64,000 nt of DNA from an uncultured Gammaproteobacteria bacterium (GCA_964535655.1 CAZHTP010000003.1:1186-65185), one strand, 5' to 3'; shown: positions 9,653 through 31,724, counted from the first letter of the stretch. Program-made: numbers and translations. Notes: generated by a model not told the origin, from the sequence alone.

Positions 9653-9653
9653 T

Positions 9654-10271: not shown

Positions 10272-11213
10272 TGCGATAATGGAAGACCACCATTGCTCAT
10301 TCCCTTGAAGTTTAGACCAATACCAGTATTCACATCCCCATAGAAGGATTGTCTGGAAGTTAAGTTCGGCTAGTTTTTTAACGAGTGCTTCGGTTCGTTG
10401 TGGTGAGGCACTGGGATATTCTGCTTTTTGCGTATGTACCGCTGACTGGTACTCCCACGGTTCTGCTTGTGCTTCTGTTATCCATGGCTCAATCCCCTCG
10501 TGTTGCATCTTTTTTTGCCATTTCGAAAGTTTCCACCAATATAAAAAGGTCGGCTCAATATAATGGTCTGGTGAGACTGGAACTTTAGTATATACATTGA
10601 CTCCTATGGTATCGGCTAGTGCTGTATTTTTATTAAAGGCATTATTATACGAGAAATTCCAATCAAAAGGTGCTAGATTTATGGCATTAGAAAGCAGTAT
10701 TTTCTTTTCTGGAGAGATCACTCTTGTTTGCGCTACTGCCCGCTTAACGAAAGCCCGACTTACAAATTTGTTACCGGTAAAGGGGAAGTTGTTAAACGCT
10801 TCATTTTCAATTTGAATGTGCGAGATTTTTGCATTTTTCTTATACCTTTCCAAAACTTTCTGGATGAAATTAAACGCACATTGGGATAGATCCGCTTGCG
10901 TATCGATGGGAACATGCGCTAAATTGGTGTTATATTTTTTTTTAATCCACTCCGGAAAATGAAATTCTGGCCAGCGCGGAGATTTCATTCCTATTGCGAG
11001 AATAATTTGGGTATTGGTATTTGAGATGGTGTTAATAATGGTATCTAGCTTTGAAAAGTTGTAATGTCCCTCATGAGGCTCAATTTCGCTCCAATATGCA
11101 CAGACGCGAATATAGTTAAATTTTATAGTTAAAACTGACTGCAATGTCTCCCGATAATCGAGATTAAGATACTCGCATTGAATTTGACTAAAAGTAGTGC
11201 CGAGTTGCGCCAT
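10227..11213 (-). CDS. Putative glycoside hydrolase (TIM-barrel, clan GH-A-like)
   Basis: 'IQIENEAFN' resembles the catalytic acid/base NE motif of clan A hydrolases. Aromatic-rich, 328 aa. Confidence 0.4.
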   Translation of the reverse strand: MAQLGTTFSQIQCEYLNLDYRETLQSVLTIKFNYIRVCAYWSEIEPHEGHYNFSKLDTIINTISNTNTQIILAIGMKSPRWPEFHFPEWIKKKYNTNLAHVPIDTQADLSQCAFNFIQKVLERYKKNAKISHIQIENEAFNNFPFTGNKFVSRAFVKRAVAQTRVISPEKKILLSNAINLAPFDWNFSYNNAFNKNTALADTIGVNVYTKVPVSPDHYIEPTFLYWWKLSKWQKKMQHEGIEPWITEAQAEPWEYQSAVHTQKAEYPSASPQRTEALVKKLAELNFQTILLWGCEYWYWSKLQGNEQWWSSIIALREYCNDTCRCGFR

Positions 11214-11239
11214 GGTATCCTTTTTTATGAAAGTGCATT

Positions 11240-12775
11240 CTATTTATCATGGAGGAGTGCGATGTAAACTCCGTTAGTCCAGCCGAATCCTTTTTGAACA
11301 GGATACTCACTGTCTTCCGGTTTATTCCCAACTTTTACGACATTATATTTTTCGTACATAGTACCCGTTTGTTTGAAAGTATTTTCGCAGTTGCGCAGCC
11401 AGCGCGCCTTTATTTCGGCAGCTAAATCCAAGAAGCCATATTTCTTTAACCCTTGAATAGCAATCCACTCAAGTGGGGCCCATCCGTTTGGCGCGTCCCA
11501 CTGTTCTCCCGTATCGTAAAGAGAGGTTATAAGCCCGCCAGGGAAGAGAAACTTTTCTTTTAGAATCTTGGCCATTGATTGAGCTTGCTCCTGAGTCGCA
11601 ATTCCCGCGTACAGTGGGTATACCCCTGCCAACGAATAATAAATGCTTTGTTTTTCTGTTTTATAATTATAATCAAAGAAGAATTTTTCTTTTTTGTTAT
11701 AGAGGTATTGCTGAATGATCATAACCCGATCTGTTCCATTTTTGAGATACCTTTCTGCTTTTTTGTTTTCACCAATTACTTTATACCAATCGTGTAGCTG
11801 TTTTTCATATATATATAAAAGACAATTTAAATCGATAGGAATAATATCTGCCGCTATGCAGTGTGCTAAAGATTTATGGTCAGAAAACCAGCGTCCACTA
11901 AAATCCCAACCCGACTCCGCCGCAGCTCTATTATGGCGATAGTAATTGTGTTTACCTGAGTTTGTTACTTTATGTGCATTGAGTCGCTCCTCTAAATAAG
12001 CTTCCTCACGTGGTGTATTGTCTTGGTCGTAATAGCGGTTTAACGTGAATTTTCCCAATGCTACAGCCCGTTTTTCCATCCAAAATTTATATTCCTTTTC
12101 AATGTATGGTAAGTAGGTATGAAGTAAGGCTGTATCTGTGTTCTCAATTAATAGTTCGATCATCTGCACGAAAAATGGTGGCTGTGAACGCGTAGCTTCG
12201 TAAACTCTATTCCCATTCGGGATGTATCCTATTTTATCAATGAGATAGCAGAAGTTATCGCATATGTTTTTTACCATATCGAGCATTTTGCTGTTTGCTA
12301 GTCCAAGCATTGTAAAATAACTGTCCCAATAATATATTTCGCGGAATCTTCCGCCTGGAACAATATATGGGTTAGGTAAATGGATTAAGGTACTTCCTGG
12401 ATGAGTTGGTCCATCTGGATTGCGGTACAGCACTGACCACAATGAATTTATATGTTGTTCAACTGACCTATTTACAGGAACAGCATCTTCTATAATTGAA
12501 TCTTTGCTTACAGGAATTTGAAAATTGTCTAAAACAAACTGCTTTAAGTTAAAGCCTTTGCTTTTTTTTTCAAGTGCATACTTTTTCAAGATTGTTTTCT
12601 GGTCAAATACCGGGATGCTATCAGTAAATGTTTTAGAATCTGCGAAGATTTTGTTTATCTGGACTCGTTTAAATAATTCACCTGAAAGTTGAATGTACTT
12701 ATTTTTATTGATCTCGATTTTACTTTTCCCTGCTTTTTTATACAACTGTAGTGGGTTAATTCGTAATTCGAACAT
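11240..12775 (-). CDS. Alpha,alpha-trehalase (GH37)
   Basis: Trehalase signature 1 'PGGRFREIYYWDSYFTMLGL' and signature 2 'QWDAPNGWAPLEW'. Confidence 0.85.
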   Translation of the reverse strand: MFELRINPLQLYKKAGKSKIEINKNKYIQLSGELFKRVQINKIFADSKTFTDSIPVFDQKTILKKYALEKKSKGFNLKQFVLDNFQIPVSKDSIIEDAVPVNRSVEQHINSLWSVLYRNPDGPTHPGSTLIHLPNPYIVPGGRFREIYYWDSYFTMLGLANSKMLDMVKNICDNFCYLIDKIGYIPNGNRVYEATRSQPPFFVQMIELLIENTDTALLHTYLPYIEKEYKFWMEKRAVALGKFTLNRYYDQDNTPREEAYLEERLNAHKVTNSGKHNYYRHNRAAAESGWDFSGRWFSDHKSLAHCIAADIIPIDLNCLLYIYEKQLHDWYKVIGENKKAERYLKNGTDRVMIIQQYLYNKKEKFFFDYNYKTEKQSIYYSLAGVYPLYAGIATQEQAQSMAKILKEKFLFPGGLITSLYDTGEQWDAPNGWAPLEWIAIQGLKKYGFLDLAAEIKARWLRNCENTFKQTGTMYEKYNVVKVGNKPEDSEYPVQKGFGWTNGVYIALLHDK

Positions 12776-12800
12776 ATAGGTATTGTCTCTCTGTTAAGAC

Positions 12801-13046
12801 TTAGTAGTGCAAATTTGACGGTGTTGCTGTTTCTGTTTCGGCGCTTGATGATGCGTAAGATGAATCAATGTTCCTCATTGCGCTTGGAACGTCGATAGCG
12901 GTAGGTAGTGGTACTTGTCCGATAGTTTCACCAATTTTCCCCATTACAGGAATCATGCCAATAATGACGATTAGGGCAAGTGCTGCGTAAAGGAGTCCTT
13001 TGTTAGACATAATACATATTCTATAGTTTTTAACTTGAATTGCCAA
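12801..13046 (-). CDS. Small membrane protein (hypothetical)
   Basis: 81 aa with a single TM helix. Confidence 0.3.
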   Translation of the reverse strand: MAIQVKNYRICIMSNKGLLYAALALIVIIGMIPVMGKIGETIGQVPLPTAIDVPSAMRNIDSSYASSSAETETATPSNLHY

Positions 13047-13127
13047 TATGTTTCGAAATTAAAATATATGTGTAATTGACAGACTACTGTTGTTTTTATG
13101 TATCATGTATAAAGTATATCTGATACT

Positions 13128-13871
13128 TTGAAAAGGAAATTTATGGCTCGCAGCAAACAAAACATGTTACCTGTTCATCCACATTTATTGGTGGTTGGAC
13201 TTGGTGTAAGTGTGACGCTCGCCTTGGCAGTAGCACTCTATACTCCTATGCCACGAACGCAATCGCTTGCATCAATTAATAATGTCGACAATTCATACGC
13301 TGCAGCAACGGCTACGCCACCTCCCTCAACTCCACGAGCTTCAGCAACACCTTGTCCAACTTCGTGCCAAGTGATTTCGCTAGCTCCGATGGCAGATGCC
13401 CGCGTAAAACGAGTAGAGCCAAATGAAAACTTTGGGAGTGCGGTTGAACTTCGCGCCGAGAATGACGCGAGTGGAAGTTATTATGAATCGTATTTAAAGT
13501 TTGATTTATCTTTTATTCCTCCAACGGCAACTGTAAAGAAGGCAGAACTAACACTGCACACTATTGATGAATCAAAAAATGGTCCTCAACTTTACCAGGT
13601 AGCGAATACTTTTAAAAACACTACCACCCCTTGGACAGAGTCGGGTCTCACTTGGAACAATAAACCCGCTAAAGTTGGCTCTTCGCTCGGTAATAAGGCT
13701 GCGGTAGTACGTGATGTGTATGTCACTTATGATGTGACGGCATTAGTTAATAAATCTAAGGGTCAAATTTACAGCTTTGGTCTCTTTGCGGATTCAACAG
13801 ATGGGTTAGTGCTTTCATCAAAGGAAAATGGCGTCAACTGGAATATTCCGTATATGACGGTTAATTTCTAA
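13128..13871 (+). CDS. Secreted protein with DNRLRE-like carbohydrate-binding-type domain
   Basis: Signal/TM at N-terminus. 'NENFGSAVELRAEND...YLKFDLSFIPPTATVKKAELTLH' pattern. Followed by a strong terminator. Confidence 0.4.
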   Translation: MKRKFMARSKQNMLPVHPHLLVVGLGVSVTLALAVALYTPMPRTQSLASINNVDNSYAAATATPPPSTPRASATPCPTSCQVISLAPMADARVKRVEPNENFGSAVELRAENDASGSYYESYLKFDLSFIPPTATVKKAELTLHTIDESKNGPQLYQVANTFKNTTTPWTESGLTWNNKPAKVGSSLGNKAAVVRDVYVTYDVTALVNKSKGQIYSFGLFADSTDGLVLSSKENGVNWNIPYMTVNF

Positions 13872-13893
13872 ACCATTGTTTCAGTCTTTTTAA

Positions 13894-13927
13894 AAATACG
13901 GCCTCAAAAAAGGCCGTATTTTTTTGT
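13894..13927 (+). terminator. Rho-independent terminator
   Basis: Hairpin AAATACGGCC-tcaaaaaa-GGCCGTATTT followed by a T-run. Confidence 0.7.
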
Positions 13928-13982
13928 AGAAGCTCGTAATTCTATACTTTACTGGCTATTTTTGGTATACTCTCCCAAGATT

Positions 13983-13998
13983 TTATGGTGGTCGTAGC
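13983..13998 (+). repeat. Duplicate of the tRNA-His 5' end (ATGGTGGTCGTAGC), 107 bp upstream of the intact tRNA
   Basis: Exact 14-15-nt match to 14091-14105. Embedded in a hairpin-rich segment. Confidence 0.4.
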
Positions 13999-14092
13999 CT
14001 GAGGCAGTATCAACTGCCGAAGGTCCCGTGAGTACCACGAACGGGATCAATGGGTGAAAACCGTTGCTAAAGTGTGTTAGTTAGTCAAATAT

Positions 14093-14167
14093 GGTGGTCG
14101 TAGCTCAATGGTAGAGCAGCAGTTTGTGGTACTGCTGGTTGCGGGTTCGAGTCCCGTCGATCACCCA
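14093..14167 (+). tRNA. tRNA-His (anticodon GTG) with genomically encoded G-1
   Basis: Manual fold: 7-bp acceptor plus extra G-1:C73 pair, D-arm GCTC/GAGC, anticodon stem GCAGT/ACTGC with loop TTGTGGT, T-arm GCGGG-TTCGAGT-CCCGT. Confidence 0.8.
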
Positions 14168-14316
14168 TCCATTGTTATATTATTATGATATCCTTTTCTC
14201 GATACTCCTGACTGGACGTTCGAACCTTTTTAGGAAATATATTTTGCTATTACTCTAAATTCTGTATGAATTTGATCTTTTTCGGGAGCATAAAGGACCG
14301 CAGCAAGATCACTATC
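14163..14316 (+). repeat. 154-bp perfect direct repeat, copy 1 (starts in the last 5 nt of tRNA-His)
   Basis: Identical to 25893..26046 base for base. Confidence 0.9.
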
Positions 14317-14364
14317 AGATATTCTCCCGTTTTAATTCCGTATTTATTGTTAAAAATAATAGCA

Positions 14365-16953
14365 TTATATTTCTATTTCGATAGGTATTTGTTGTTGTAC
14401 CTGAACTTGATTTTCTACTTCTATTCTGATTTGATCGTATATTTCGACCTCAGCATCTAATATTTCAAAGCTCACTATAAGTGTATATTCTGCTGGATAT
14501 TTTCCTGCTTTATCCCAACCTTCACGACCTCGTACGGCAATGCAAAAACCATCCGTCAGTTCGTAAGCTTTAATAACCGCCCAATCTTTTTGATTCACTC
14601 CCATAGTTCTTTTTAGGTTTCTAGTCTGTCCAGTATTTTCTTTATCTCCTATTACCCATTTAATCGAATGTCCATTTCGATCTTCATGGCCATCTTCTGA
14701 ATATTTAACACATTTTAGAAATTCTTCTGTACTTTCTCCAATATTACTACTAACCCAATCCACCCTATTTGATAAATACTTTTTGGGATTCTTTCTTGTT
14801 CTTCTTGGTTTAGCTTTATATGCAACTGTCACTTCAACCAGTATGTTGTATTCGTTACCTGCTCTTCTTATCTCTTCTGGTATTGGAATTTTGTAAACGT
14901 GCAGGTCTTTATTTAGTATTCTTATATTGCCCCTGCTATAAAGTGTGACACGACTATCGCTACTATAAAGTGCTCTGTCTAAAGAAGGGACACCATATCC
15001 TATTTTTCGTAGTACTGCCTGATACTGCGACTTATCAATATTTTGCGCCCAGTGAGGCCAGCGAGCAGAGTGTATTAATAATGCACGATACATCAAAGCG
15101 GATTCTTCAGGGTATTGACCTTCAATCTTTCCTAATATATGAGAAACTCTAGGGGTACTAATTGATGTTCCGATGAAGTCTCTTGAAGTTAATGGACCTG
15201 GTGGTGAGGACCTAACGCTTTCTAAACTAAGCTCATTGAGTTGTTGTAATGTTATTGGCTGTGCGTAGTTTACAGCATAACTTCCACCTATTTCTACAAC
15301 ATCTGGTTTGATCACTCCCCAAATTCCTGGACCTGATCTAGAAAATGGAGATGGGTCCCATTTACCGCCAAGAGATTTTAAGTTTTCATTTTGGAAATCT
15401 GCTAGACATATTGCTCCTACTGTAACTCCCATAAAAGCTTGTCCGGGATTTGCAGCTCTCGCTGCATCTTCCAATAAATATTCTGGGTAATTTTTTCCAT
15501 TACGGAGGTAGTTTAATATGCCCGGATTTAATGCCTGCTCTGAGAAAGAACTAATATTGCCGATGCTTTGAACGAACACTATATCATTGTCGTATGATAA
15601 TGAATCCATGCAAGCTGCCCACACAGACATTCTGCTTATTTTACACGCTATAGAGCTAGATATTGAATGATTAAAGATGCGGGTTCTTTGCTCAGTGAAT
15701 TTGTAGTATTTATCAACAATGTTGATTAATAATAGCGCTGGCTGGATAGTTTTTGGTATTACTCCATCTTTATTTAATACTCTTGCATTTTCTAACCAAA
15801 AGGGACTTTGAAAAATTCCATTTTTCGGTATTTCGTTATAGAATTGGATTGCCCCAGCGATTCTAGTTCCATGTCCACCATTTTCAATTTCGTCGCCGAC
15901 ACCATTACCATCTGGCAAAAAATTATAAGAAGCTTCCCTGACAATGGATTCTTTTAAGAGGACGTGCTCTTCATTTATTCCACTATCGATTACGCAGATT
16001 CTTGGTGCGTTTGCTCGTGGAGGTAAAACTGTTAATCCATTTTCGTATAGATTATTGATCTCATTATGATCGTTAATAATCACAATCTCTTCCGCTTCAG
16101 ATATCTCAAAAATATACGGGTAGTTTGCAGCGATATCTTTTAGTCCTTTCCCTGATATTTCAACACGGATGGAGAAACTATCATAAAACTCTACAGCGTT
16201 ATAGGTTTGGTTATCAACGATTTGTAGTATGTTTCCTTTATAGAAGTTCACCAACTGTTGCAATTGGTCTTCACGTTCGCTTTTTAGCTTGTCGTACTCT
16301 TGATATGCAAACGTAAGTTTTTCTTCCCATTTTTCTTTTTTTGCCTGAAATTCTTCTTCCGTTTCACTTTTAGTCTTTTCAATTTTGTTTTGAGGAGGAA
16401 TTGTTGTACCTGTACACTCTATAGAAATATCAACTGTGCAAGCAGTGTCATCTTTGATATGTATCCATTTTTTGTACAACTCTTCGGAAAGTATATGTTG
16501 CAGTTTGTCATGCGGGTTTATATCATATACTTTTGCTACTGACCCACTTTTCTTTTCGTTGTTCTCAAATGCCTTTATGCTCTTAGTTAGCTTGTTTAAC
16601 TCTATATCCTCAGTTGCAACGATTGCAAAACCTTCATCATACTCTGCCACGATTTCAAATCCAAAGGCGGAACGTAAAAACTCTAAATCTACGTCTTCTT
16701 CTATTTGCACAAGAGCTGAGTTTCCCTTTGGAAGTATTCTGCCTACTTCAGTATCACTTCTGTTGAGATTTTCTTCTTTCCAAGTATTACTAAGCATTTG
16801 CAACTTGCCCGTAAGCTCGAACGCATGATCTTTACGATTTTCTAAATTTTGTATTGTCTTTTCGTTTGATTTTCCTTGTGCACGAGGGAAGTATGCTCTA
16901 TCTTTGAGCACCATCTGAATGGGAAGATGATTTAGTTGTCGTTGTGTTGCCAT
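14365..16953 (-). CDS. Subtilisin-like serine protease (peptidase S8) with long N- and C-terminal extensions; ietS-like
   Basis: Catalytic triad motifs 'CVIDSGI' (Asp), 'HGTRIAG' (His), 'GTSISTPRVSHILG' (Ser). 862 aa. Overlaps the upstream AAA gene by 56 nt. Confidence 0.85.
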   Translation of the reverse strand: MATQRQLNHLPIQMVLKDRAYFPRAQGKSNEKTIQNLENRKDHAFELTGKLQMLSNTWKEENLNRSDTEVGRILPKGNSALVQIEEDVDLEFLRSAFGFEIVAEYDEGFAIVATEDIELNKLTKSIKAFENNEKKSGSVAKVYDINPHDKLQHILSEELYKKWIHIKDDTACTVDISIECTGTTIPPQNKIEKTKSETEEEFQAKKEKWEEKLTFAYQEYDKLKSEREDQLQQLVNFYKGNILQIVDNQTYNAVEFYDSFSIRVEISGKGLKDIAANYPYIFEISEAEEIVIINDHNEINNLYENGLTVLPPRANAPRICVIDSGINEEHVLLKESIVREASYNFLPDGNGVGDEIENGGHGTRIAGAIQFYNEIPKNGIFQSPFWLENARVLNKDGVIPKTIQPALLLINIVDKYYKFTEQRTRIFNHSISSSIACKISRMSVWAACMDSLSYDNDIVFVQSIGNISSFSEQALNPGILNYLRNGKNYPEYLLEDAARAANPGQAFMGVTVGAICLADFQNENLKSLGGKWDPSPFSRSGPGIWGVIKPDVVEIGGSYAVNYAQPITLQQLNELSLESVRSSPPGPLTSRDFIGTSISTPRVSHILGKIEGQYPEESALMYRALLIHSARWPHWAQNIDKSQYQAVLRKIGYGVPSLDRALYSSDSRVTLYSRGNIRILNKDLHVYKIPIPEEIRRAGNEYNILVEVTVAYKAKPRRTRKNPKKYLSNRVDWVSSNIGESTEEFLKCVKYSEDGHEDRNGHSIKWVIGDKENTGQTRNLKRTMGVNQKDWAVIKAYELTDGFCIAVRGREGWDKAGKYPAEYTLIVSFEILDAEVEIYDQIRIEVENQVQVQQQIPIEIEI

Positions 16954-17968
16954 TTATTTTTTTTGTACTAGGAGGGGCAATTTCATCCAACGCAATTGTC
17001 AAATGCGTATCGTTCACAGTACTACTCCCATCTAATATAGCCGTCTTTGCTGCATTTTGAGCTACAGATACAACGTCTGCAGCAGATAGCCCTTTTACTT
17101 TTTTAAATAATACGCCCCAATTAATTTTTTTGTTTATATTCAAAGCGGCCAAAGTTGTTTTCAGCAATTGTTCTATTTGTTGTGAGTCGGGTCTTTTGAT
17201 TTCAATTATATCATCAAAACGTCTATATATGGCCTTGTCTAGAGATCCCTCTAAGTTTGTGGTCGCTACAAGTAATCCTGCAGACTCATATTCATCTAAA
17301 AGCATTAGTAGCATATTAACTATCCTTTGTGTTTCTCCAACATCTGAACTACTAGTTCTCGACTTCGCTATAATGTCACATTCATCTAACAATAATACAC
17401 ATGGCGATTTTTGGCTTGCATCGAAAATTGATCTTAAATTTGCTGAAGTTTCACCAAAGTATGAGGAGATTAAACTATCAAATCTAACTTTTAATAGAGG
17501 AAGTCCAACATTCCAAGCTAGTCTCTCAGCTCCCATTGTCTTACCACACCCGGGTGGTCCATAAAGTAATATTTTTTTTCTTGGTTTTAAGTTATGCCTT
17601 GCTAGTCGATCTCTGGCAGCAAATTCTTTTTCTATCCGTTCAAATCTATCTTCAACATCCGATTGCAAGACCATGTAATGTCTTAAAACATGGGCCGGAA
17701 TAAAAGTAGCAAGAGGTTGGTTATTTCTTTGACTTTTAGGAAGTTCGAATAATTTTTTTTCACTTACTTCTGGATTTACATAGTACTTGGTGGTCAACCG
17801 ATTTTGAGCATCAGCAATTATTTTCTCAAGTTGCAAGGATAATTTCTTATGCCCTTTTTTCTTCTCTTCTTCAACGACGGCAGAAGCTATTTTTAATAAA
17901 CTTTCTGAATCGTTTGTCTCAATTGCTCTAAATAGTCTAGTAAGTAATATTGAATTCATATAAGCCAA
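16898..17968 (-). CDS. Classic AAA+ ATPase (CDC48/FtsH-type ATPase domain); ietA-like
   Basis: Walker A 'LLYGPPGCGKTM', Walker B 'VLLLDECD', second region of homology. 356 aa. Translationally coupled to the subtilase. Confidence 0.85.
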   Translation of the reverse strand: MAYMNSILLTRLFRAIETNDSESLLKIASAVVEEEKKKGHKKLSLQLEKIIADAQNRLTTKYYVNPEVSEKKLFELPKSQRNNQPLATFIPAHVLRHYMVLQSDVEDRFERIEKEFAARDRLARHNLKPRKKILLYGPPGCGKTMGAERLAWNVGLPLLKVRFDSLISSYFGETSANLRSIFDASQKSPCVLLLDECDIIAKSRTSSSDVGETQRIVNMLLMLLDEYESAGLLVATTNLEGSLDKAIYRRFDDIIEIKRPDSQQIEQLLKTTLAALNINKKINWGVLFKKVKGLSAADVVSVAQNAAKTAILDGSSTVNDTHLTIALDEIAPPSTKKINGNTTTTKSSSHSDGAQR

Positions 17969-18072
17969 ATCAAAAAAGCTTATCTTTTGAAGAGTTAATT
18001 ATACTGTATCACTCTACTGTTAATTACTCAATAAACTAGTTTCTAAACTCATATACACGAAAGCGATCGTAC

Positions 18073-18671
18073 TTAATAACTACTAATACGCCACTTAAGG
18101 AAATCCTCATCTATTGTTAGCTTGTATATCTTTTTTTTCTCAAATTCTGCTTTTATGACTGAAACAAAAAATATATATCCTTGCTCTGGACTTCTGCCAA
18201 TTACCCAATAAGTAGAGAAATCACTTCTGTCGTGTACAATCTTTTGAAGCTCTTCATGCTCAAATAAACCAAATTTATCTATAAATATAATTAAATCAAG
18301 ATTTCTATAATATTCTGGTCCTTTTTTTGCTTTTTTATCAATAGCATCAATTACTAGAGAAGTAATGTTTCCCTTAGAAAAAGGTGGTATACCTGTTCAG
18401 TGTCCAAAACTATGTTCTTTTTCTCTCCTGCTGTGCAAGCTAATACACCATCTCCTCCAAATCGGTCTGATCCAATAGTCCACTCGTTATCAGGATCTAA
18501 ATGGCGTGCTACAGTGCAAAGTATAAATAATCCAAGTACTTCACGAGGTAATAAATTTATATTTGCTATTTTTTTACCTTTTACTAGTAGCGCTGAATTT
18601 TTCAAAATTGTTTGAATTATATTTTTAAGGAATAAATTAAGATCTTTGACAAGATAAATTGGTGTATGCAT
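18073..18671 (-). pseudogene. Frameshifted hypothetical gene (105-aa ORF plus about 92-aa Met-less continuation in another frame)
   Basis: ORF 18354..18671 is followed by an open frame 18073..18396 with no Met at all. The frames meet at a T5/A5 run near 18378-18382. Confidence 0.45.
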
Positions 18672-18720
18672 ACAGTTTTAAATCTCTAGCATAACTTGTT
18701 ATCTCATGCATATGCATATT

Positions 18721-18796
18721 GCGGAAAGTGGTTCTTCATTCGAAGTATATGGGTTATAATTGATTCCAGTCAAAACCCAACTATCACTTTGTTGCA
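18721..18796 (+). repeat. Degenerate tRNA-3'-half-like element (about 75% similar to 25828..25900)
   Basis: Shares 'GG..ATGGTTC..CATT.CGA..AT.TGGGTTATAATTG.TTCCAG...AACCCA' with the segment preceding repeat copy 2. Confidence 0.4.
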
Positions 18797-19309
18797 CTAT
18801 TCTTTAGAAAATTTCCCTGGACTAATGGAAACAACTTTTGCTTGAACTTTTGCATTTTTAACCTCGTACTCAATTCTATCTCCAGGCTTCTTTCCTAGTA
18901 ACTTCTCACCAAGAGGTGATTCATAAGAAATCCATGATTTATTAGTTCCTGAGTCGTATTTACCGAGGACTGTATATTCTTCAGGCTCGTCCTCGCCTTG
19001 AAAAAGCACACCTACAGTATTTCCGAGACCTACACGATCGACTTCTTGTCTAGGTTCAATAAAGACTGGATCAGTGACCGATTGTCTTAGATTTAAGACA
19101 AATGCGGCATTAATTTGTGTATCTCTTTTAGCTTGATCATAGGCTGCGTTATCATGCCATTCATGGCTTTCACCTGCAGCATCACCTATGTCTTTGCTAG
19201 ATTGAGCTAAGGCTTGCTCTGCAGACTCTAATTCCCTTAGTAATCTGTTATAAGTTTCTCGCGTCATTAAGTTTAATTTGCGAGGTTGCCTCTCTCGATT
19301 TTCTATCAT
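18797..19309 (-). CDS. GreA/GreB-family transcript cleavage factor-like protein
   Basis: N-terminal coiled-coil plus C-terminal FKBP-like domain ('VGLGNTVGVLFQGEDEPEEYTVLG', 'ISYESPLGEKLLGKKPGDRIEY'). Confidence 0.6.
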   Translation of the reverse strand: MIENRERQPRKLNLMTRETYNRLLRELESAEQALAQSSKDIGDAAGESHEWHDNAAYDQAKRDTQINAAFVLNLRQSVTDPVFIEPRQEVDRVGLGNTVGVLFQGEDEPEEYTVLGKYDSGTNKSWISYESPLGEKLLGKKPGDRIEYEVKNAKVQAKVVSISPGKFSKE

Positions 19310-19311
19310 AC

Positions 19312-19986
19312 TTAATTTGACTTAACAAAATTACATCTTAAAACTACTCTTACGCCTGTATTTTCCTGTTTTACATCTTCAGATAATTCTTCCTCCAAGG
19401 TAAAGTTATTTTGTGCCATAATTTTATAAAATAGTTCTTTAGGGAGCAATGTCATTGGTAACCCCTCTTTAGTGATGTATGAGTACTCTTCTCCTGCGAC
19501 CGCTTCATAGGTAGGATCTAACTCTTTGTTAGTAAAGATATTGAGACATACTATCGCCCCAGTTTTTGTAACCCGAGATAGTTCTTTTAAGGCACTTTCA
19601 TATTGATCCAATGTTGCTGCCTGATGGAGTACACCGGTCGTTACTACAACGTCGAAAAAATTGTCGTTGAAAGGAATATGAAGAATGGTTCCCTCTTTTA
19701 TTCTGTTTTCCATTTCATTAGTAGGAATATAATTTTGAACACGCTTTTTTGTTGCAGCGATCATCGCAGGGTTTATATCACAAGCATATGTCTCGAATCC
19801 CATACTGCATAACATTTCAGTATGTCTTCCACCACCACATCCTAAGTCTAATGCCTTCAGTTCACTGGTATCTTTTACTTGAGATAATCTATTTACTATC
19901 TTAGGATCTGCTGGTTTTGACTCGAAATATTCAACAATTTTATCGTCGTTCCAAAACTTTTTTTCTGACTGGGTAGTATCATTCAT
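19312..19986 (-). CDS. Class I SAM-dependent methyltransferase
   Basis: Motif I 'ALDLGCGGGRHT'. Confidence 0.7.
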   Translation of the reverse strand: MNDTTQSEKKFWNDDKIVEYFESKPADPKIVNRLSQVKDTSELKALDLGCGGGRHTEMLCSMGFETYACDINPAMIAATKKRVQNYIPTNEMENRIKEGTILHIPFNDNFFDVVVTTGVLHQAATLDQYESALKELSRVTKTGAIVCLNIFTNKELDPTYEAVAGEEYSYITKEGLPMTLLPKELFYKIMAQNNFTLEEELSEDVKQENTGVRVVLRCNFVKSN

Positions 19987-19989
19987 ATA

Positions 19990-21087
19990 TTATTGCTCCA
20001 CTATTTCATAACGGCTGTTATGGATTTCTGTTATTAATGTCTTCATATTATTCTCTTTGAATACCCTTTCGCACTCCTCCGGGTTCTTAGTGATGGCAAA
20101 CATTCCAGGACCAACTGAGGACACGGTTAATACGTCTGCAATTCCTTTTTCCTTAAGAATGGCGACTTTATTTGCCAAATCTACCATAGGTGGATAAACA
20201 AAAGAGCAATTCTCGATACTGCCCATATGGTAGCGGTAATCGAAAATTAGATCACCGATTACTTTTAAGTCGCCTTCTTCCATAGCAGGTAAGCACTCAT
20301 GGAATAATCTATATGCTATGGTAGGACCATATTTTTTGCCGCACTCCATAAATTTATGTAGGTTTTTTATCTCTTCGTCCATTAAATATTTTGAATCTGG
20401 ATATGTGAAGTCTTCAGGAATTCCGATAACAACCTTATACTCGTCGCTGATATTCATTGTTTTGACAACCGTATTTTCTCCTGCTATTATTACCAACCCG
20501 CCTTCATACATTCCACAAGCAGCTGATCCACCAATACATTGAACTGGATTTATCAAATTATCGTCTCCGTCAATTTCCTCGCCATGATTCTGCGCCATAT
20601 ATCTTACTAAATATTTATCACTTACGGGCTTACCGTAAAGCTCGTTTATTGCGCATGCTACACCTGCAATAGTTGCGCTACTCGATCCAAGTCCACAATG
20701 CCTCAAATTAACTTTATCCTCAACATTGATGTAAAGTCCGTCTGTGAAGCCTAACGCTTTTCTCATTATTTCAGCTGAATGCCTTATCAATGTGGACCGT
20801 TTTGATGTAGGTGAAATTTCAGTAGAACCTTTTTTGTCTGTTATGTTAACTTTTATTGTTTTAAAAATTTTTACACAGAAATCTATTTGACCTGGGGTAT
20901 ATCTCAAATTATTATTCTCTGCGATCTTACTAGGATCAATCGCCATGGCTTCTAACCGACTCGGATACTTAATTATAATTTTATCTTTCTCTCTTTTGAT
21001 CTTCAAATCTTTTTGTTCAAGGTTGTTAAATACAGTGCCTACGTCAAAAGGAGTAAAGTTTGTTTTTGATGAATTAGTGTCTGACAT
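19990..21087 (-). CDS. GHMP kinase family protein (beta-RFAP synthase/homoserine-kinase-like)
   Basis: GHMP ATP-binding motif 'LRHCGLGSSSATIAGVACA'. 365 aa. Confidence 0.55.
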   Translation of the reverse strand: MSDTNSSKTNFTPFDVGTVFNNLEQKDLKIKREKDKIIIKYPSRLEAMAIDPSKIAENNNLRYTPGQIDFCVKIFKTIKVNITDKKGSTEISPTSKRSTLIRHSAEIMRKALGFTDGLYINVEDKVNLRHCGLGSSSATIAGVACAINELYGKPVSDKYLVRYMAQNHGEEIDGDDNLINPVQCIGGSAACGMYEGGLVIIAGENTVVKTMNISDEYKVVIGIPEDFTYPDSKYLMDEEIKNLHKFMECGKKYGPTIAYRLFHECLPAMEEGDLKVIGDLIFDYRYHMGSIENCSFVYPPMVDLANKVAILKEKGIADVLTVSSVGPGMFAITKNPEECERVFKENNMKTLITEIHNSRYEIVEQ

Positions 21088-21147
21088 TTGTATATCTTAT
21101 GGTGATAATATATAATGCGTTTTATTGTACCATAATGGCGCCATCAT

Positions 21148-21768
21148 ATGATAGTATTAACAGGATATAGAGCTGCTGGAAAAACAACGGTAGGGAATAT
21201 ATTGGATAATAAAGGTTACTGGTTATTCGATGTTGGCCCCTATTGGCGTAGTTTGCGTGATAATGAAGCCCCGCATCTAGATGCTGGGCAGTTTTTTTCA
21301 CTTAAAAGAAGTGAAACTAGAAATATTCACTGGGAAGATGACATGGCTGTGGAACATCTGAAGGCAGAATATGCTGCTGGTCGACTTCTTAGTAAAGATC
21401 TTGTTATCTCCGGCTACCGTAACCCCACTAGTTTAGACTATTTGCTCTCCGCCATAAGACCCCATATTTTTCCGAATAAAAGAATATCTATATGGTATGT
21501 ACATTGCGATTTTCAGACCGCATTAACTAGATATAGAGATAGAGACGGCAATAATATAACTGCAGAACAACTCATTCAACATTATAGATATGAAGATGAA
21601 ATGGGTATAGAAAAGTTACGGAATCAAGCAGACGTATTCCTAGATAATTCATCAGACTTGGATAGGTTAAAAGTTCAAATTGATACTGAACTAAAGAGAT
21701 TACTTGAATTAAATGTGGAAGGCGCTATATTGAGTGAGGGATCTCAAGCATTTAAGGAGCGTGCATAA
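21148..21768 (+). CDS. P-loop NTPase / nucleotide kinase-like protein
   Basis: Walker A 'LTGYRAAGKTTVG' at the N-terminus. 206 aa. Confidence 0.5.
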   Translation: MIVLTGYRAAGKTTVGNILDNKGYWLFDVGPYWRSLRDNEAPHLDAGQFFSLKRSETRNIHWEDDMAVEHLKAEYAAGRLLSKDLVISGYRNPTSLDYLLSAIRPHIFPNKRISIWYVHCDFQTALTRYRDRDGNNITAEQLIQHYRYEDEMGIEKLRNQADVFLDNSSDLDRLKVQIDTELKRLLELNVEGAILSEGSQAFKERA

Positions 21769-22343
21769 GCAGAGTACCATTGAGCAAAATCTTCGTACGC
21801 AATACTGTGTGCCGCAACAGGTACACCTTCGTTATGCAGCTCTGCAATTGATTTGCCGTCAGGTGTTAGACTGATAACTGTATCTGAGTTTTTTCCCCGA
21901 CCTCTTTTCTCAAAAAGTATTTTACCTATAACTTCATCTCTAAAAATCCTATGTCCAGTGGAATCGATGAAACAGATTAAATTTTCAAGAATTATTCTTC
22001 GGTCGGAATGTCCAGACATTAGATTAATAAAGTCTTCAGGGCCTAACCAATCATTCATTTCCCTCATGTAAGGTCCAGGGAATCCTTTTAAAGCGGGAAT
22101 ATTCCAGCCCGAATTATTTACTATCAACCTTCGTTGGACTATGCCATAGGCCTTTTGTGCTTTATCTATTGCGGCTTCTTCTAAGGAGAGTCTTCTTAAT
22201 TCGGGGATATCAATTTGGACTGCTTCGAACTCAATTGCATGAGGTTGAAAATGCTCTTTTGCTTTTAAGATCTTATCTTGATTTCCTGTTATATATAGCA
22301 ATCTGTCACTCATACTACTTGTTCGCTTGTACCCACAAAGCAA
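21744..22343 (-). CDS. Ham1/RdgB (ITPase)-like NTP pyrophosphatase family protein, copy 1
   Basis: 'LYITGNQDKILKAKEH' and 'NIPALKGFPGPYM' resemble the ITPase 'ATGNxxKxxE' and 'ALxGxPGxYS' motifs. The acidic residue before the second motif is replaced (NNSG). Confidence 0.45.
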   Translation of the reverse strand: MLCGYKRTSSMSDRLLYITGNQDKILKAKEHFQPHAIEFEAVQIDIPELRRLSLEEAAIDKAQKAYGIVQRRLIVNNSGWNIPALKGFPGPYMREMNDWLGPEDFINLMSGHSDRRIILENLICFIDSTGHRIFRDEVIGKILFEKRGRGKNSDTVISLTPDGKSIAELHNEGVPVAAHSIAYEDFAQWYSAYARSLNA

Positions 22344-22878
22344 ATTCTTTCCAAAGATTATTTTTAGTATCCCTTTTAATATTCATTTCTCTCATTTGGG
22401 CAATTGTATATTTCTCCGTAACAAATGTAATAATTTTATCCGAAGGTTCACCATTCTCACCGTGTTCTTCCTTTAGTATTTCGCCTTCTTGATCGTCAAC
22501 AAATGTCTTTGTCTTTTTACCATCTATATAAACAAGTAGTTGTCTGAATATAATTCTTCTATCAGTTTTATCTTGCATAAGATTTAAAAAATCCTTAGGC
22601 GTGAACCACTTATTTATGAATTTCATATAAGGACCAGGAAATCCGTTTAACGCTGGTATGATCCATCCGGCGTCATTGATGAAAAGAGGCTTTTTAATTA
22701 TTTCAAAAGCTTTTTGTGCCTTGTCTAATGCGATATCCTCTATAGAATCGGATTGTATTTCATCAACTTTCTCTGACTGTTGCACAAGATCAATGTTATA
22801 TGCTTTGAGCACTTCTTTTGCATGCTCAAATTTTGATTTATTGCCGGTTATGTATAAAAGCGATTGAACATCATCCAT
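22315..22878 (-). CDS. Ham1/RdgB (ITPase)-like NTP pyrophosphatase family protein, copy 2 (tandem paralog)
   Basis: 'LYITGNKSKFEHAKEV', 'IIPALNGFPGPYM'. Overlaps copy 1 by 29 nt. Confidence 0.45.
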   Translation of the reverse strand: MDDVQSLLYITGNKSKFEHAKEVLKAYNIDLVQQSEKVDEIQSDSIEDIALDKAQKAFEIIKKPLFINDAGWIIPALNGFPGPYMKFINKWFTPKDFLNLMQDKTDRRIIFRQLLVYIDGKKTKTFVDDQEGEILKEEHGENGEPSDKIITFVTEKYTIAQMREMNIKRDTKNNLWKEFALWVQANK

Positions 22879-22891
22879 ATATTTTCCCGTT

Positions 22892-24040
22892 TTATTCTTT
22901 CCGTTCTAGAACTCTAAATGATTGATAAAAGGTTTTTGATCTTTCTCTAAGATCCAATAGCATTTTATCATAACTGAATGTGCCATCTGGACGAAGCCCT
23001 CTATTATTTGAACGTATGTGAGTAGAAACTGCACTGTTATGAAAGCTTCTCCATTGCCACATCCCTTTATATACCTTGAATAACTCATCTTTTACTGCTG
23101 CAGTCTGTTCATCATTTGGTTCCTTTAAAAACCGGTCGGCAAGCGAGTCAGGCTGAGTGTGTTCTATCTCCTGTAATAAGGCTCTCTTTGAATTTGGAAG
23201 GTGCGGATAAATCTTGTTATGTAGATGCAGAGCATAATCAGCATCAATTCCGTACAATAACGCATCCGTGAGCGATATATTTATATCAGCAGATTGAGAT
23301 TTGGGAATTAAAGTCGTAGGGTTACCATGTTTATCAATCCATATAGTATCTCCCACTTCAAAAGGACTTGCAAAAATAGCTGTATCTATAAAATAACTAG
23401 GAGCAACCTTACCTCTTACTTCGAGCATTAATCTGGCAATGATTTCCATACTTTGTGCAGCTGTTTGCGCTCTTTCTCTCTGGACTGATTCTCCCCATCT
23501 TTCTTCTCCCAAAAGCCCTTGTATCGCACTTATAGCTTTTCTGAATTCGCGCACAAATTCTCCGTTATAGTAGATAAACCTTCTTTCGTCATCAGTACCT
23601 ACAAACGTTCTGGCGTCTTTCCCCGGTGGATTTAATTCTGTAAATGAATAGTACGTATCCCGTGGCGGGAGTCCAGTGCATTTTCCAAGCACAACAAGTT
23701 GTCTCACAAGTGCTGGCAATTGCTCATTTAAGTTTATACCTTTTACTGCTAATGAGCTTGCAAACATGCCAAGATCTCCAAGCGCTAGAGCAGCTCTATC
23801 TTCTGAATGGGCTGCTACCCCTCCTATAACGTCATCTGAAGGCAATAATTGCATACCCCGTCGTATTAGATCTGTTACGTCTACAGAAGCAGTATTGAAA
23901 ACGTGTAGTTCTTCAACCACGAAATGACTAAATGCTCCTAGAGGATATCGACTCTCATTATTTACAACTTCTGTAGCTCGTTGTTCTGGTAACATTTTAC
24001 CGCCTTTATGCGCTTTGTTGGACTCTGCGCCGTGATACAC
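22892..24040 (-). CDS. Hypothetical protein (tandem paralog A, function unknown)
   Basis: 382 aa. Shares 'PRDT..Y.....NP.G...R.F...D.ERRFI' and other blocks with 24006..25106. Confidence 0.5.
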   Translation of the reverse strand: MYHGAESNKAHKGGKMLPEQRATEVVNNESRYPLGAFSHFVVEELHVFNTASVDVTDLIRRGMQLLPSDDVIGGVAAHSEDRAALALGDLGMFASSLAVKGINLNEQLPALVRQLVVLGKCTGLPPRDTYYSFTELNPPGKDARTFVGTDDERRFIYYNGEFVREFRKAISAIQGLLGEERWGESVQRERAQTAAQSMEIIARLMLEVRGKVAPSYFIDTAIFASPFEVGDTIWIDKHGNPTTLIPKSQSADINISLTDALLYGIDADYALHLHNKIYPHLPNSKRALLQEIEHTQPDSLADRFLKEPNDEQTAAVKDELFKVYKGMWQWRSFHNSAVSTHIRSNNRGLRPDGTFSYDKMLLDLRERSKTFYQSFRVLERKE

Positions 24041-25106
24041 TTGTTAAATCTATAAGCCTTTGTAATATATCTGTTGTATATCCTCCACTGCCCAAGGAAC
24101 CTTCCTGTCTAATTGCCATATTATCATCCGCTACTTTCTTATGAGGAAATCGAAACTTTTGGATTGTATTGAGTAGATTTACTAATGCAGACACGCCAGG
24201 TATAGGTTCTCCTGATGCCGTTCGAGTTGCTCTCAGCTCTTCCTCTACTTTATTCAGAATTGACGCAGATCCTCTTTTACTCTCGGCAATCTGCCGTAAC
24301 TCCGGAGGTAAGTACTGAAGATTATCGTAAAAATAATGAGTATACTCAGGACTATCTATTATTGAGGATCCCCATAACAAATAATCAACGAGAATGACTG
24401 GCATTTGAGCACCCCCAGGACCTACATACTCTTTTCCTCCTATTACAAAAGTTGGAAAATAAGGACGTAATTCATAGGTAAAGACCTGCGGAGTAATTTT
24501 TCTTCGAACTTCAACTATTGAGCCGACCATGTTACTAAATCTTTCTTCCGCTTGCTTTACTTCATACGCGAATTGCTCATCATGGATCGATAAAGTAGAA
24601 GCTCTTACCAATGCTTCGATACTATGTGGCAACTCCTGCATTCCCAATCTAAAACTATCAATAAATATTCTTTCTTCTGGCTGGTCCGTGAAGAGCCTCA
24701 TTCTCGCGCCTTTAGGATTTCTGGGACCATACGTAAAGACTGTATCTCTTGGGACTTCATCTGTGCGCAATCCTAGTTCAATCAATTGATCTTCCAATCC
24801 TGGAACTGTCCTCGGATCTATACCGTGCGTTGCAATCGATCCTGCAAGGAACCCGAGATCGCGTAGGGATGCTCTTGCACTTAATATATCAATGCTTGTT
24901 AGTTGTTTGGACTTTAATACAAATTGAACGGTATTTGCGAATAAAGCTTCTATGTCGGCAGATCTGTTGACATTTGGTAATTTATTGCTCAAAAAATCAT
25001 CCGCTCTAAGTGGATCTAGCGCAGCTACTCTTTGGTCATCTTCTGTACATTTAACGTAGGTGTAAGCTTCTTGTGCTGTGGCCGTTTTAATATCTGGACT
25101 TAACAT
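24006..25106 (-). CDS. Hypothetical protein (tandem paralog B, function unknown)
   Basis: 366 aa. Paralogous to 22892..24040. Motifs 'VGPGGAQMP', 'EGSLGSGGYTTD'. Confidence 0.5.
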   Translation of the reverse strand: MLSPDIKTATAQEAYTYVKCTEDDQRVAALDPLRADDFLSNKLPNVNRSADIEALFANTVQFVLKSKQLTSIDILSARASLRDLGFLAGSIATHGIDPRTVPGLEDQLIELGLRTDEVPRDTVFTYGPRNPKGARMRLFTDQPEERIFIDSFRLGMQELPHSIEALVRASTLSIHDEQFAYEVKQAEERFSNMVGSIVEVRRKITPQVFTYELRPYFPTFVIGGKEYVGPGGAQMPVILVDYLLWGSSIIDSPEYTHYFYDNLQYLPPELRQIAESKRGSASILNKVEEELRATRTASGEPIPGVSALVNLLNTIQKFRFPHKKVADDNMAIRQEGSLGSGGYTTDILQRLIDLTSVSRRRVQQSA

Positions 25107-25182
25107 AATACGCCATTATGGCGCCATTCAAGTATATTACAAGGAGTCCAATTTAGTCAATTAAATATACGGTTGGAGAATA

Positions 25183-25755
25183 CTATGCTTTTTTCATTTC
25201 TATCCATTCCTTAATAATTTTTCTAAGGAATTGAGATTTTGATAGCTCTTGTTTTTTAGATTCAATTTCCAAAAAGTTATTGATTTGTGGAGTAGAAATA
25301 AAATTAAATTTTGCAAATTGTTTACTGCTTATCTTGGTTACTTCACGAGAGAGTATGTCTTCGAGATTCTGGGCGTTATACGAGATAATTTTTATATTAT
25401 CATCCTTATCCATATGAAACGTGAATTGCGATTGTTTTTGAGGATCGGAGATATTTTCATCATAAAGGCAAAGAATAGGTATATGCCAATTTGTGGCTAG
25501 TGTAATTTGTTGTCCTACCCCTATTGAAGGATATGTTATTTCTGCAATTACTAGGTCGCTTTTTTTAATTGATTCTATAGATTTATCGTAAATTTCTTTA
25601 TCGTGGATTTCGCTAGACTCGTACCAATTTAGTGTTTCTTTGTATCCTATCTTTTTTAAGATATTACTAATGTTCTGCAATATCCCACTTTTTTGCCTTG
25701 CTATTGTAGAAGAAGCTGAAATAAAAAAGTTTAAACTGGAAGTATTTGTTTTCAT
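25183..25755 (-). CDS. Hypothetical protein (possible Rossmann-like nucleoside-binding fold)
   Basis: 190 aa. 'VIAEITYPSIGVGQQITLA' is weakly reminiscent of nucleoside 2-deoxyribosyltransferase-like proteins. This is speculative. Confidence 0.35.
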   Translation of the reverse strand: MKTNTSSLNFFISASSTIARQKSGILQNISNILKKIGYKETLNWYESSEIHDKEIYDKSIESIKKSDLVIAEITYPSIGVGQQITLATNWHIPILCLYDENISDPQKQSQFTFHMDKDDNIKIISYNAQNLEDILSREVTKISSKQFAKFNFISTPQINNFLEIESKKQELSKSQFLRKIIKEWIEMKKA

Positions 25756-25827
25756 TGGTGCCTATATTATATCTTAATTCTCATTTTAATATAAAGATAA
25801 GCTTAATTTATGGAGCAAATGAATATT

Positions 25828-25892
25828 GAGGAAAATGGTTCCGCATTTCGAGCATGTGGGTTATAATTGGTTCCAGATACAAATCGTCAAGA
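25828..25892 (+). repeat. Degenerate tRNA-3'-half-like element immediately preceding repeat copy 2
   Basis: 'GGTTCCAG....CGTCAAGAACCCA' parallels the tRNA-His T-arm/acceptor 'GGTTCGAGTCCCGTCGATCACCCA'. Similar to 18721..18796. Confidence 0.4.
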
Positions 25893-26046
25893 ACCCATCC
25901 ATTGTTATATTATTATGATATCCTTTTCTCGATACTCCTGACTGGACGTTCGAACCTTTTTAGGAAATATATTTTGCTATTACTCTAAATTCTGTATGAA
26001 TTTGATCTTTTTCGGGAGCATAAAGGACCGCAGCAAGATCACTATC
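25893..26046 (+). repeat. 154-bp perfect direct repeat, copy 2
   Basis: Identical to 14163..14316. Also encodes the C-terminal 29 codons of the minus-strand ORF 25960..26478. Confidence 0.9.
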
Positions 26047-26478
26047 TTCCAAAATCCCTCTCGTGTCATTTGCGAATGCAGAATATCCTTGATTATCAGG
26101 TTGTACATCATTGTCGACTTCCACGCATAATACAAAAGATTTGAAATCTACTCCTGCATCATCAGGTTTATCAATAGCATCATCTACCCAATAGTCTTCT
26201 CCATATTTACTCGATAGTTCAGCAGCTTTTTCTTCTCCTATTCCTTCACGAACGGCCATTTCAATAGCTTTTCGTGGATCGAACCCTTCGGCAGTTACTC
26301 TGACGGTAACTGGCTTGATACCATTTTCTTGAAGTATCTCTTTTGCTTTATCAAAAACGTGTCTATCATTTGTTGTAACACTAGAACGAGGTTCAGAATA
26401 TATTAAAGCTGTTTCTATACGATTGAATTTTTTGTTAAGCTCAGGTGCTGGAACTGGTTGACCTTCATTATCATTCAT
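25960..26478 (-). CDS. Hypothetical acidic protein
   Basis: 172 aa. Its 3' end lies inside repeat copy 2. Confidence 0.45.
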   Translation of the reverse strand: MNDNEGQPVPAPELNKKFNRIETALIYSEPRSSVTTNDRHVFDKAKEILQENGIKPVTVRVTAEGFDPRKAIEMAVREGIGEEKAAELSSKYGEDYWVDDAIDKPDDAGVDFKSFVLCVEVDNDVQPDNQGYSAFANDTRGILEDSDLAAVLYAPEKDQIHTEFRVIAKYIS

Positions 26479-27682: not shown

Positions 27683-27896
27683 ATTAACTTATCTGCATTA
27701 TACTATTATGTGTAAGTTGGGAAAGGATGTTAGTTGAAATTCAACAAATGAGGTTCGAGTTGAGTCCAGCCACTGCCCCCAATCCTCCTAAACATATTCC
27801 TTTGTTTGATATAATATCGTCACGATTAAAATCGCATTATTTGATTTAGATGGTGTTATCATCGCTCCTTGCACGCGTTGGTAATACATTAATTTT

Positions 27897-29388: not shown

Positions 29389-29406
29389 GGAGTGATTGTA
29401 TCAAAA

Positions 29407-31712: not shown

Positions 31713-31724
31713 TTGTAGGTTAAG

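Follow-up and report, generated by a model that had tools for sequence, protein, structure and literature searches.

A probable composite genomic island without a recombinase gene of its own beside tRNA-His in an uncultured gammaproteobacterium

How a block of accessory genes came to lie directly behind an intact tRNA-His gene, enclosed by two identical copies of a long repeat and with no integration enzyme inside it, is the question raised by this stretch of 64 kilobases (kb; the window) from an uncultured Gammaproteobacteria bacterium (GCA_964535655.1, CAZHTP010000003.1:1186-65185). The block, of about 11.6-11.7 kb, adjoins tRNA-His and is bounded by two identical repeats of 154 base pairs (bp). 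This interval is probably a real composite genomic island, placed in a variable region that begins at the last bases of tRNA-His, and the island is horizontally acquired, fairly ordinary in kind and without an integration enzyme of its own. The searches for recombinases, repeat copies and tRNA genes cover the window; tRNA genes were called with ARAGORN and Rfam, protein families were assigned with Pfam, NCBIfam, PHROG, PADLOC and PDB, and remnants were sought with tblastn. ARAGORN and Rfam agree in placing an intact tRNA-His (GTG) at 14094-14166 on the plus strand, as an earlier note on this DNA had claimed, with an Rfam tRNA score of 65.6 bits that constitutes the sole Rfam match in the whole window. 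All genes but one between 14.3 and 29.8 kb are oriented toward tRNA-His.

The two copies of the repeat, at 14163-14316 and 25893-26046, are identical at 154 of 154 positions. A self-comparison of the window recovered the pair as 14155-14316 against 25885-26046 at 98% identity and no third copy, while the blocks of 20 nucleotides (nt) flanking the repeat match in register at only 4-7 of 20 positions, which is chance level, so that the edges are sharp on both sides; the perfect direct repeat reported in the earlier note is thus real. The left copy begins with the last 4-5 nt of tRNA-His, continues through the tRNA trailer and ends with 87 nt from the 3' end of gene X, an open reading frame (ORF) of 172 amino acids (aa) at 25960-26478 on the minus strand, whose fragment in this copy (14230-14316, minus strand) is dead. 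In the right copy this 3' end is functional: the edge of the copy (26046/26047) falls exactly between codons 144 and 145, and gene X is intact solely because this copy provides its last 28 codons and stop codon. Only 4-5 nt of the repeat belong to tRNA-His, with similarity to the tRNA further upstream at chance level, and the left edge at 14163 lies within 4 nt of the point (14166/14167) at which synteny with related genomes breaks off. The 0 differences in 154 nt place the divergence of the copies below about 2%, compared to 17% at third codon positions between a module of the island (segment B) and its counterpart in another genome, and to about 30% between two copies of an internal element (D2), both described below. 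The repeat is therefore the youngest feature of the region, and it is a very recent duplication of the tRNA-His trailer and the 3' end of gene X.

Gene X is an ORF without homologues (ORFan): profile searches gave no family match, and none of 5.8 billion proteins, nor the genome contig and metagenome contig collections, contained a homologue. The proposal that it is a serine recombinase remnant was rejected, as BLASTP showed no similarity. The codon-exact right edge and the restored 3' end raise the question of whether gene X, and not tRNA-His, was the target, with an insertion 87 nt before its stop codon that carried a replacement 3' end and an identity block that reached the end of the tRNA by chance. 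Long attachment (att) identity blocks are indeed known for some tyrosine-integrase elements, and blocks of about 112 bp in SLP1 and about 180 bp in HP1, which restore the target gene, provide a precedent. Nonetheless, this explanation is considered very unlikely, given that the left edge of the repeat coincides with a tRNA-end breakpoint used in three relatives, that an ORFan would be an improbable conserved target, and that 67 nt of non-coding identity beyond the stop codon would be left unexplained.

The three relatives were found through the trehalase gene, the closest trehalases being 72-74% identical to that of the window, and they comprise the loci L004 (GCA_964403585.1), L005 (GCA_030855825.1) and L006 (Logan, SRR18933249). 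The order cupredoxin, cyclase, GH42-like, trehalase, small ORF and tRNA-His is kept in all of them, and nucleotide homology to the window ends at 14166/14167, the last bases of tRNA-His. Past this point L004 and L005/L006 carry other islands, completely diverged from that of the window, and the 154-bp repeat and D2 are absent from these loci. Large serine recombinase ORFs of 597 aa in L004 and 517 aa in L006 abut tRNA-His and read into it, and L004 also encodes a Gabija pair (GajA 8e-157, GajB 6e-139). The break of synteny at the tRNA end, together with these islands, indicates a hot spot, at the 3' end of tRNA-His, for defence islands that bring a recombinase, and this position appears to be a hot spot for foreign DNA in the uncultured lineage to which the window genome belongs. 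The recombinases are only distantly Ccr-like, scoring 82 bits against a cut-off of 900. In L004 (1-8400) and L006 (6850-8900) the recombinase ORFs run through to the antisense strand of tRNA-His, which would place the end of each element at or inside the 3' end of the recombinase gene; at least three resolvase-family genes follow tRNA-His in L004.

No such enzyme is found in the interval of the window. Pfam, NCBIfam and PHROG gave no match there to a recombinase, nor to a transposase or phage protein, and tblastn with the serine recombinases of the relatives detected no remnant anywhere in the window, intergenic DNA included, so that the earlier claim of an interval devoid of integrase, recombinase and transposase holds. 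Ten further large ORFs between 36 and 64 kb include no recombinase either. Phage structural, replication and packaging genes were likewise sought, with no informative PHROG match and no relatives in viral contigs, and integron features are lacking: no tyrosine recombinase and no attC or other Rfam match was found, and it is at the 5' ends of operons that the repeated elements occur. As no recombinase is encoded in cis, movement of the island is now limited to what a recombinase supplied in trans, or RecA acting between the repeats, can bring about.

The distal and larger module of the interval, segment B, is a nine-gene operon block at 18798-25760 on the minus strand. Its genes, identified through Pfam and PDB, encode a GreA-like factor (18797-19309), an S-adenosylmethionine (SAM) methyltransferase (19312-19986), a GHMP-kinase-like protein (19990-21087), a P-loop kinase (21148-21768), two Ham1/ITPase proteins (21744-22343 and 22315-22878), two PrnB-like proteins (22892-24040 and 24006-25106) and a DNPH1/Rcl-like 2'-deoxynucleoside 5'-phosphate N-hydrolase (25183-25755), all on the minus strand but for the P-loop kinase. 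The PrnB-like assignment comes from a match to PrnB in PDB (1e-53), and relatives of the PrnB-like protein at 93% and 86% identity led to the loci in which the block recurs. In L007 (Logan, SRR30654423; also L008, Logan, SRR30654422), positions 9372-16310 correspond to window 25734-18798 at 92.2% identity over 6,940 nt, and the next match to the window is tRNA-His itself (L007 16416-16499, window 14169-14086, 94%). Segment B thus lies 108 nt from the tRNA-His of that genome, which has no segment A with its IetAS-like pair, no gene X and no duplication. The remaining similarity between L007 and the window is limited to a 156-aa protein about 55% identical and a weak methyltransferase match, with non-homologous flanks, and the L007 host is only distantly related to the window genome.

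The ends of the shared block are tight: at the GreA stop codon, identity to L007 declines over a few bases from about 90% to chance level, and at the other end it is lost about 25 nt upstream of the first ATG. Identity at codon positions 1, 2 and 3 is 96, 98 and 83%, a pattern that indicates purifying selection and modest synonymous divergence. At such a divergence, flanks inherited together with segment B should still align, and they do not. In a third context, L009 (JGI 3300044940), the distal half of segment B is present at 87% identity, with the block cut by a DDE transposase. High identity between non-homologous flanks in L007 and the further context in L009 together mark segment B as a horizontally moving block that has recently passed between distantly related hosts, and in two such genomes it adjoins tRNA-His. 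Compared with L007, window 14170-18797 constitutes an insertion between tRNA-His and segment B, and L007 therefore serves as an empty site for segment A. The two segments are independent cargo modules, segment B being present without segment A in L007.

Several additional aspects of segment B were recorded. Its extents are 18797-25755 in the window and 9342-16311 in L007, and a distant version with a pyridoxal phosphate (PLP) decarboxylase occupies L012 5641-13238. A TATAAT-like box lies about 7-12 nt before the first ATG in the window (25756-25780), in L007 (9342-9372) and in L009 (280-303), and its conservation in all three versions suggests a leaderless transcript or one with a very short leader. 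The distant PrnB loci L010 and L012 show no linkage to tRNA-His or to a recombinase, the GreA-like protein had no match among metagenome contigs, and no paper in the literature searched combines PrnB, Ham1 and GHMP. From its gene content, segment B may break down or make unusual nucleotides. Being under purifying selection in distant hosts and with no described function, it is a reasonable candidate for tests of a role in defence or in nucleoside metabolism.

The module nearer to tRNA-His, segment A, has as its main content two adjacent minus-strand genes that overlap at 16898-16953. The first encodes an IetS-like S8 peptidase (14365-16953; Pfam Peptidase_S8 1e-29, PADLOC IetS 8e-58, NCBIfam IteS 110.7 bits) and the second an IetA-like AAA ATPase (16898-17968; Pfam AAA 6e-31, PADLOC IetA 7e-79, NCBIfam IteA 232 bits). 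The PADLOC matches extend across most of both models, while the NCBIfam equivalog cut-offs are missed by far (232 bits against 510 for the IetA-like protein and 110.7 against 900 for the IetS-like one), and the pair is therefore to be regarded as a distant variant. An adjacent AAA ATPase and S8 peptidase is the arrangement of the IetAS defence system, reportedly described by Gao and colleagues in 2020; the pair in segment A differs from it in falling below the equivalog cut-offs. Segment A thus appears to carry a distant IetAS-like anti-phage pair. A comparison of the IetA and PrnB-like proteins with viral contigs gave nothing useful. Upstream of the ietA-like gene, a six-frame reading revealed a gene of about 199 aa (18073-18671, minus strand) with a single frameshift near a T-run, for which Pfam, PHROGs and PADLOC gave no family match.

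The border between the two modules bears on how many events built the island. At this middle junction (18677-18801, plus strand), directly upstream of the segment A operon, the D2 element is followed by AACCCA and about 20 nt of trailer-like sequence, ending at the GreA stop codon. The distal copy of D2 (25784-25892, plus strand) lies directly left of the second repeat copy and upstream of the segment B operon. Over 93 nt (18677-18769 against 25784-25876) the copies align without gaps at 71% identity, with a 20-nt core, TGGGTTATAATTGRTTCCAG, for which the chance expectation is 0.01 occurrences; when gaps were allowed, a local alignment of 18677-18801 with 25784-25914 scored 44, compared to 12.2 +/- 2.1 in shuffled sequences (z = 15). 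The likeness does not stop at AACCCA but reaches about 20 nt further, into the perfect repeat, and the middle site therefore represents, in diverged form, a copy of the entire junction ahead of gene X. The distal D2 element is either an att-arm-like sequence or a promoter region.

In the earlier note, both junctions had been interpreted as degenerate remnants of a tRNA 3' end. The relatedness of the element near 18.7 kb to that near 25.8 kb is genuine, as the alignment score shows, but a tRNA origin is not supported: local alignments of tRNA-His with the two elements stayed at the level of shuffled sequences under two scoring schemes (z <= 2), and the proposed T-arm and acceptor remnant at 25828-25892 resembles tRNA-His no better than a shuffled sequence does. 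Comparing the junction elements with the tRNA-His of E. coli likewise gave a negative result, and the tRNA-remnant proposal was consequently rejected. This affects the model in which two site-specific insertions, first segment A and then segment B, occurred successively at tRNA-His, left degenerate att scars of the tRNA 3' end and later lost their integrases. The modules are indeed separable, with L007 carrying B without A, each ends on its tRNA-distal side in a related element with (A/C)CCCA, and the breakpoint in the relatives is the 3' end of tRNA-His. Three comparable att copies would however be predicted, yet identity is 100% between the outer repeats and only about 70% at the middle junction; the likeness of the scars to the tRNA is at chance level, and the repeat contains 4-5 nt of tRNA but 87 nt of gene X. 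This model is accordingly judged unlikely. What stands of it is the existence of two separable, horizontally acquired modules; the two equivalent insertion scars do not, as a perfect outer repeat and a middle junction of about 70% identity point to one recent event that spanned the whole interval.

A second, shorter family of elements, of about 37 nt and running from GAGGTTCGA to a terminal TCCAGCCACTGNCCCCA, shares the orientation of tRNA-His and is always located upstream of an operon. One copy (GAGGTTCGA..TCCAGCCACTGCCCCCA, 27746-27782, plus strand) precedes the operon of a methyltransferase, a 159-aa protein and gene X, and another (29901-29937, plus strand) precedes an operon comprising a pyrophosphatase and two NUDIX genes, where it may mark the far edge of the variable region. 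The same short element occurs at L007 9254-9290, upstream of segment B, in the position taken by D2 in the window. Taken together, the borders have in common only (A/C)CCCA and the two families of adjacent elements, and they are not statistically separable from promoter elements. It is thus conceivable, though doubtful, that the short elements (D2 and the TCCAGCCACTG type) are promoters or operators of the module operons with no relation to recombination. All five element copies precede an operon on the minus strand, at 6-150 nt upstream of its first gene, D2 contains hexamers on the minus strand that resemble promoters, and segment B is found behind D2 in the window and behind the other element type in L007. 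A promoter and terminator scan showed no enrichment, with 45 sites compared to 43.5 expected in shuffles; the continuation of the D2 likeness through AACCCA into the trailer has the shape of an att junction, and the 154-bp repeat would be left unexplained. A search of the genome contig collection with the motif GGTTCGAN6TCCAGCCACTGNCCCCA gave 0 matches. Behind the two D2 copies lie a 105-aa ORF and a 190-aa protein, which were also considered as paralogues; they show no similarity, and the idea was rejected.

Whether the repeat could be a product of assembly was examined using three contigs from an independent k=31 assembly (Logan) of run SRR8893623, all identical to the window: L001 (1240-14139), L003 (18539-22363) and L002 (26017-35808). 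L002 breaks exactly 30 nt (k-1) within the right end of the second repeat copy. A de Bruijn graph breaks in this manner where a repeat continues into two different sequences, and therefore the junctions of the repeat with the IetS-like gene and with gene X both exist in the reads. This addresses the concern, raised in the earlier note, that the repeat might be an assembly artefact: both right-hand junctions are present in the independent assembly, although a circle and an empty site would give the same four junctions as the integrated form. An assembler could thus have threaded a separate 11.73-kb circle with one repeat copy into an empty-site chromosome, or merged two strains, and the repeat is longer than the usual maximum k-mer, with the Logan unitigs breaking at it and so unable to phase it. 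Such an artefact is nonetheless most improbable, considering that the interval encodes no replication, partition or recombination function, which makes a stable plasmid unlikely, and that the deposited contig (232,710 nt) runs through both repeat copies; even if it were true, the same element would be present in excised form.

Turning to the integrated island, a history can be proposed that accounts for the sharp repeat and the diverged middle junction. Modules would have accreted one by one beside tRNA-His, each keeping a junction composed of an arm, (A/C)CCCA and a trailer-like sequence. Most recently, the chromosome would have recombined once, reciprocally, with a circular intermediate in which the 154-bp segment was already present. 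This circle may most plausibly have arisen through imprecise excision or unequal exchange that took along 149 nt of the right-hand flank, and this would also have cost the element its tRNA-proximal end, where the serine recombinase gene sits in the relatives. The exchange, catalysed by a site-specific recombinase in trans or by RecA, would have left about 11.6 kb between identical copies, restoring the site formed by tRNA and trailer on the left, creating a new joint at 14316/14317 and keeping gene X whole on the right. As to the provenance of the tRNA-proximal part of the repeat, 14167-14235 (about 65 nt) is homologous to the tRNA trailer of L007 at an equal offset from the tRNA end (score 16.5 compared to 9.5 +/- 1.6, with 5 of 2000 shuffles reaching it), and this part would be a trailer that accompanies either tRNA-His or segment B in both genomes.

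A number of observations weigh against the island and this history. The recombination event is inferred and not shown, since neither an empty site (sought through gene X in genome and metagenome contigs and in the protein set), nor a circular junction of the island, nor a close relative was found. Trehalase and histidyl-tRNA synthetase (HisRS) had no relatives above 90% identity among 15 billion sequences and, with gene X lacking homologues, an empty site in the same species is not findable. The content of guanine and cytosine (GC) within the island, 0.32-0.41 compared to about 0.37 around it, is flat and not atypical. All of the border elements lie in promoter regions of minus-strand operons and could be regulatory rather than recombinational, and their shared ACCCA core is too short to be significant alone. 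Neither an entirely native origin nor one borne entirely by the element accounts for the likeness between the trailers of the window and L007. As an exact repeat of 154 bp exceeds common assembler k-mers, the order of the segments rests on the read pairs of the original assembler. Furthermore, the att sites on which large serine recombinases normally act are short, with 2-12 bp of identity, and these enzymes would not alone create or need a repeat of 154 bp.

Among known systems, the tRNA-linked tyrosine-integrase islands of the pathogenicity-island type share with this interval a tRNA border, flanking direct repeats, a cargo of accessory or defence genes, absence from relatives and accretion in tandem, the newest member lying nearest the tRNA. 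The interval falls outside them in its lack of an integrase and in a GC content that is not atypical. In addition, the repeats of those islands are made of the tRNA 3' end, unlike the repeat described here, which takes the last 4-5 nt of the tRNA and then extends 150 nt downstream into gene X, and the recombinases present at the site in the relatives of the window are serine enzymes. Another likeness is found in Campbell-type integration after aberrant excision, the logic of the lambda gal and bio transducing phages, in which an element that picks up host flank and loses one of its own ends, with the functions encoded there, is afterwards flanked by a host duplication. The difference is that the interval contains no phage genes (PHROGs) and that the event is deduced from structure only.

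The third comparison concerns the composites of the staphylococcal cassette chromosome (SCC), including the ccr-less arginine catabolic mobile element (ACME), which form cassette arrays at the 3' end of rlmH, with large serine recombinases in some cassettes only and short degenerate border repeats, and whose recombinase-less cassettes are thought to be moved in trans (PMC7029136). An array at the 3' end of one conserved gene, with recombinases only in some members, is the point of resemblance, whereas the target here is tRNA-His and not rlmH, the outer repeat measures 154 bp compared to about 18 bp, and the border repeats of the window are not demonstrably the same sequence. The stretch from 14.2 to about 29.9 kb would, on a reading regarded as distinctly unlikely, represent a cassette array of a type not described outside staphylococcal and enterococcal cassette chromosomes, in which whole operons, tightly delimited by the last stop codon and by a point about 25 nt ahead of the first ATG, are exchanged behind a few conserved slot elements by large serine recombinases encoded in some genomes only. 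Were this true, segment B would be a mobile operon that destroys or makes unusual nucleotides, its two PrnB-like proteins would be haem enzymes, and it could represent a new anti-phage or nucleoside-antibiotic system.

For the island as such, the architecture would be unsurprising to a specialist, and it is the cargo that has practical value. The locus documents a hot spot of integration at tRNA-His in a lineage known from only a handful of metagenome assemblies, at which an IetAS-like defence module and a nucleotide operon of undescribed function are exchanged, and the island offers a concrete case of an element immobilised without its recombinase yet still flanked by a perfect, recombinogenic repeat. 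Most interest attaches to the uncharacterised mobile operon of segment B and to the conserved leader of tRNA-His.

This leader (13984-14089, plus strand) comprises a copy of the tRNA acceptor strand and two hairpins. The copy of the tRNA 5' end noted earlier upstream of the gene is real and extends over 15 nt (13984-13998, identical to 14090-14104), but the view that it is an insertion scar does not hold. In L005/L006 the exact 15-mer is likewise repeated, at a spacing of 100 nt, and the leader region can be aligned to these loci at 84% identity over 187 nt, including the approximately 90 nt between the copies; L007 has a shortened form, far more diverged than that in L005. As both the copy and the intervening leader are conserved in relatives, the 15-nt copy is not a scar of the island but an old feature of the tRNA-His leader. 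The leader also contains TGGGTGA, the complement of the tRNA-His 3' end, and in the predicted fold (z = -3.9) the upstream 15-nt copy pairs with the 3' acceptor strand of tRNA-His. No Rfam family matches the leader, which may serve in processing or regulation, or may be a half-tRNA of great age. The contig L001 stops at 14139/14140, inside tRNA-His and ahead of the T arm, which implies that sample SRR8893623 holds a second tRNA-His variant sharing the anticodon arm. The HisRS gene (33752-35032) is located 20 kb from tRNA-His.

Beyond gene X, two minor observations concern possible further blocks of foreign DNA. One NUDIX gene (141 aa), together with 25 nt upstream of it (28963-29413), is 85% identical at the nucleotide level to L009 5476-5926, where its neighbours are different, and represents another small block with tight ends. 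Two adjacent radical-SAM/SPASM genes (30351-32975), just past the last short element, have a GC content of about 45%, compared to about 37% elsewhere in the window, and could form a further block of foreign origin.

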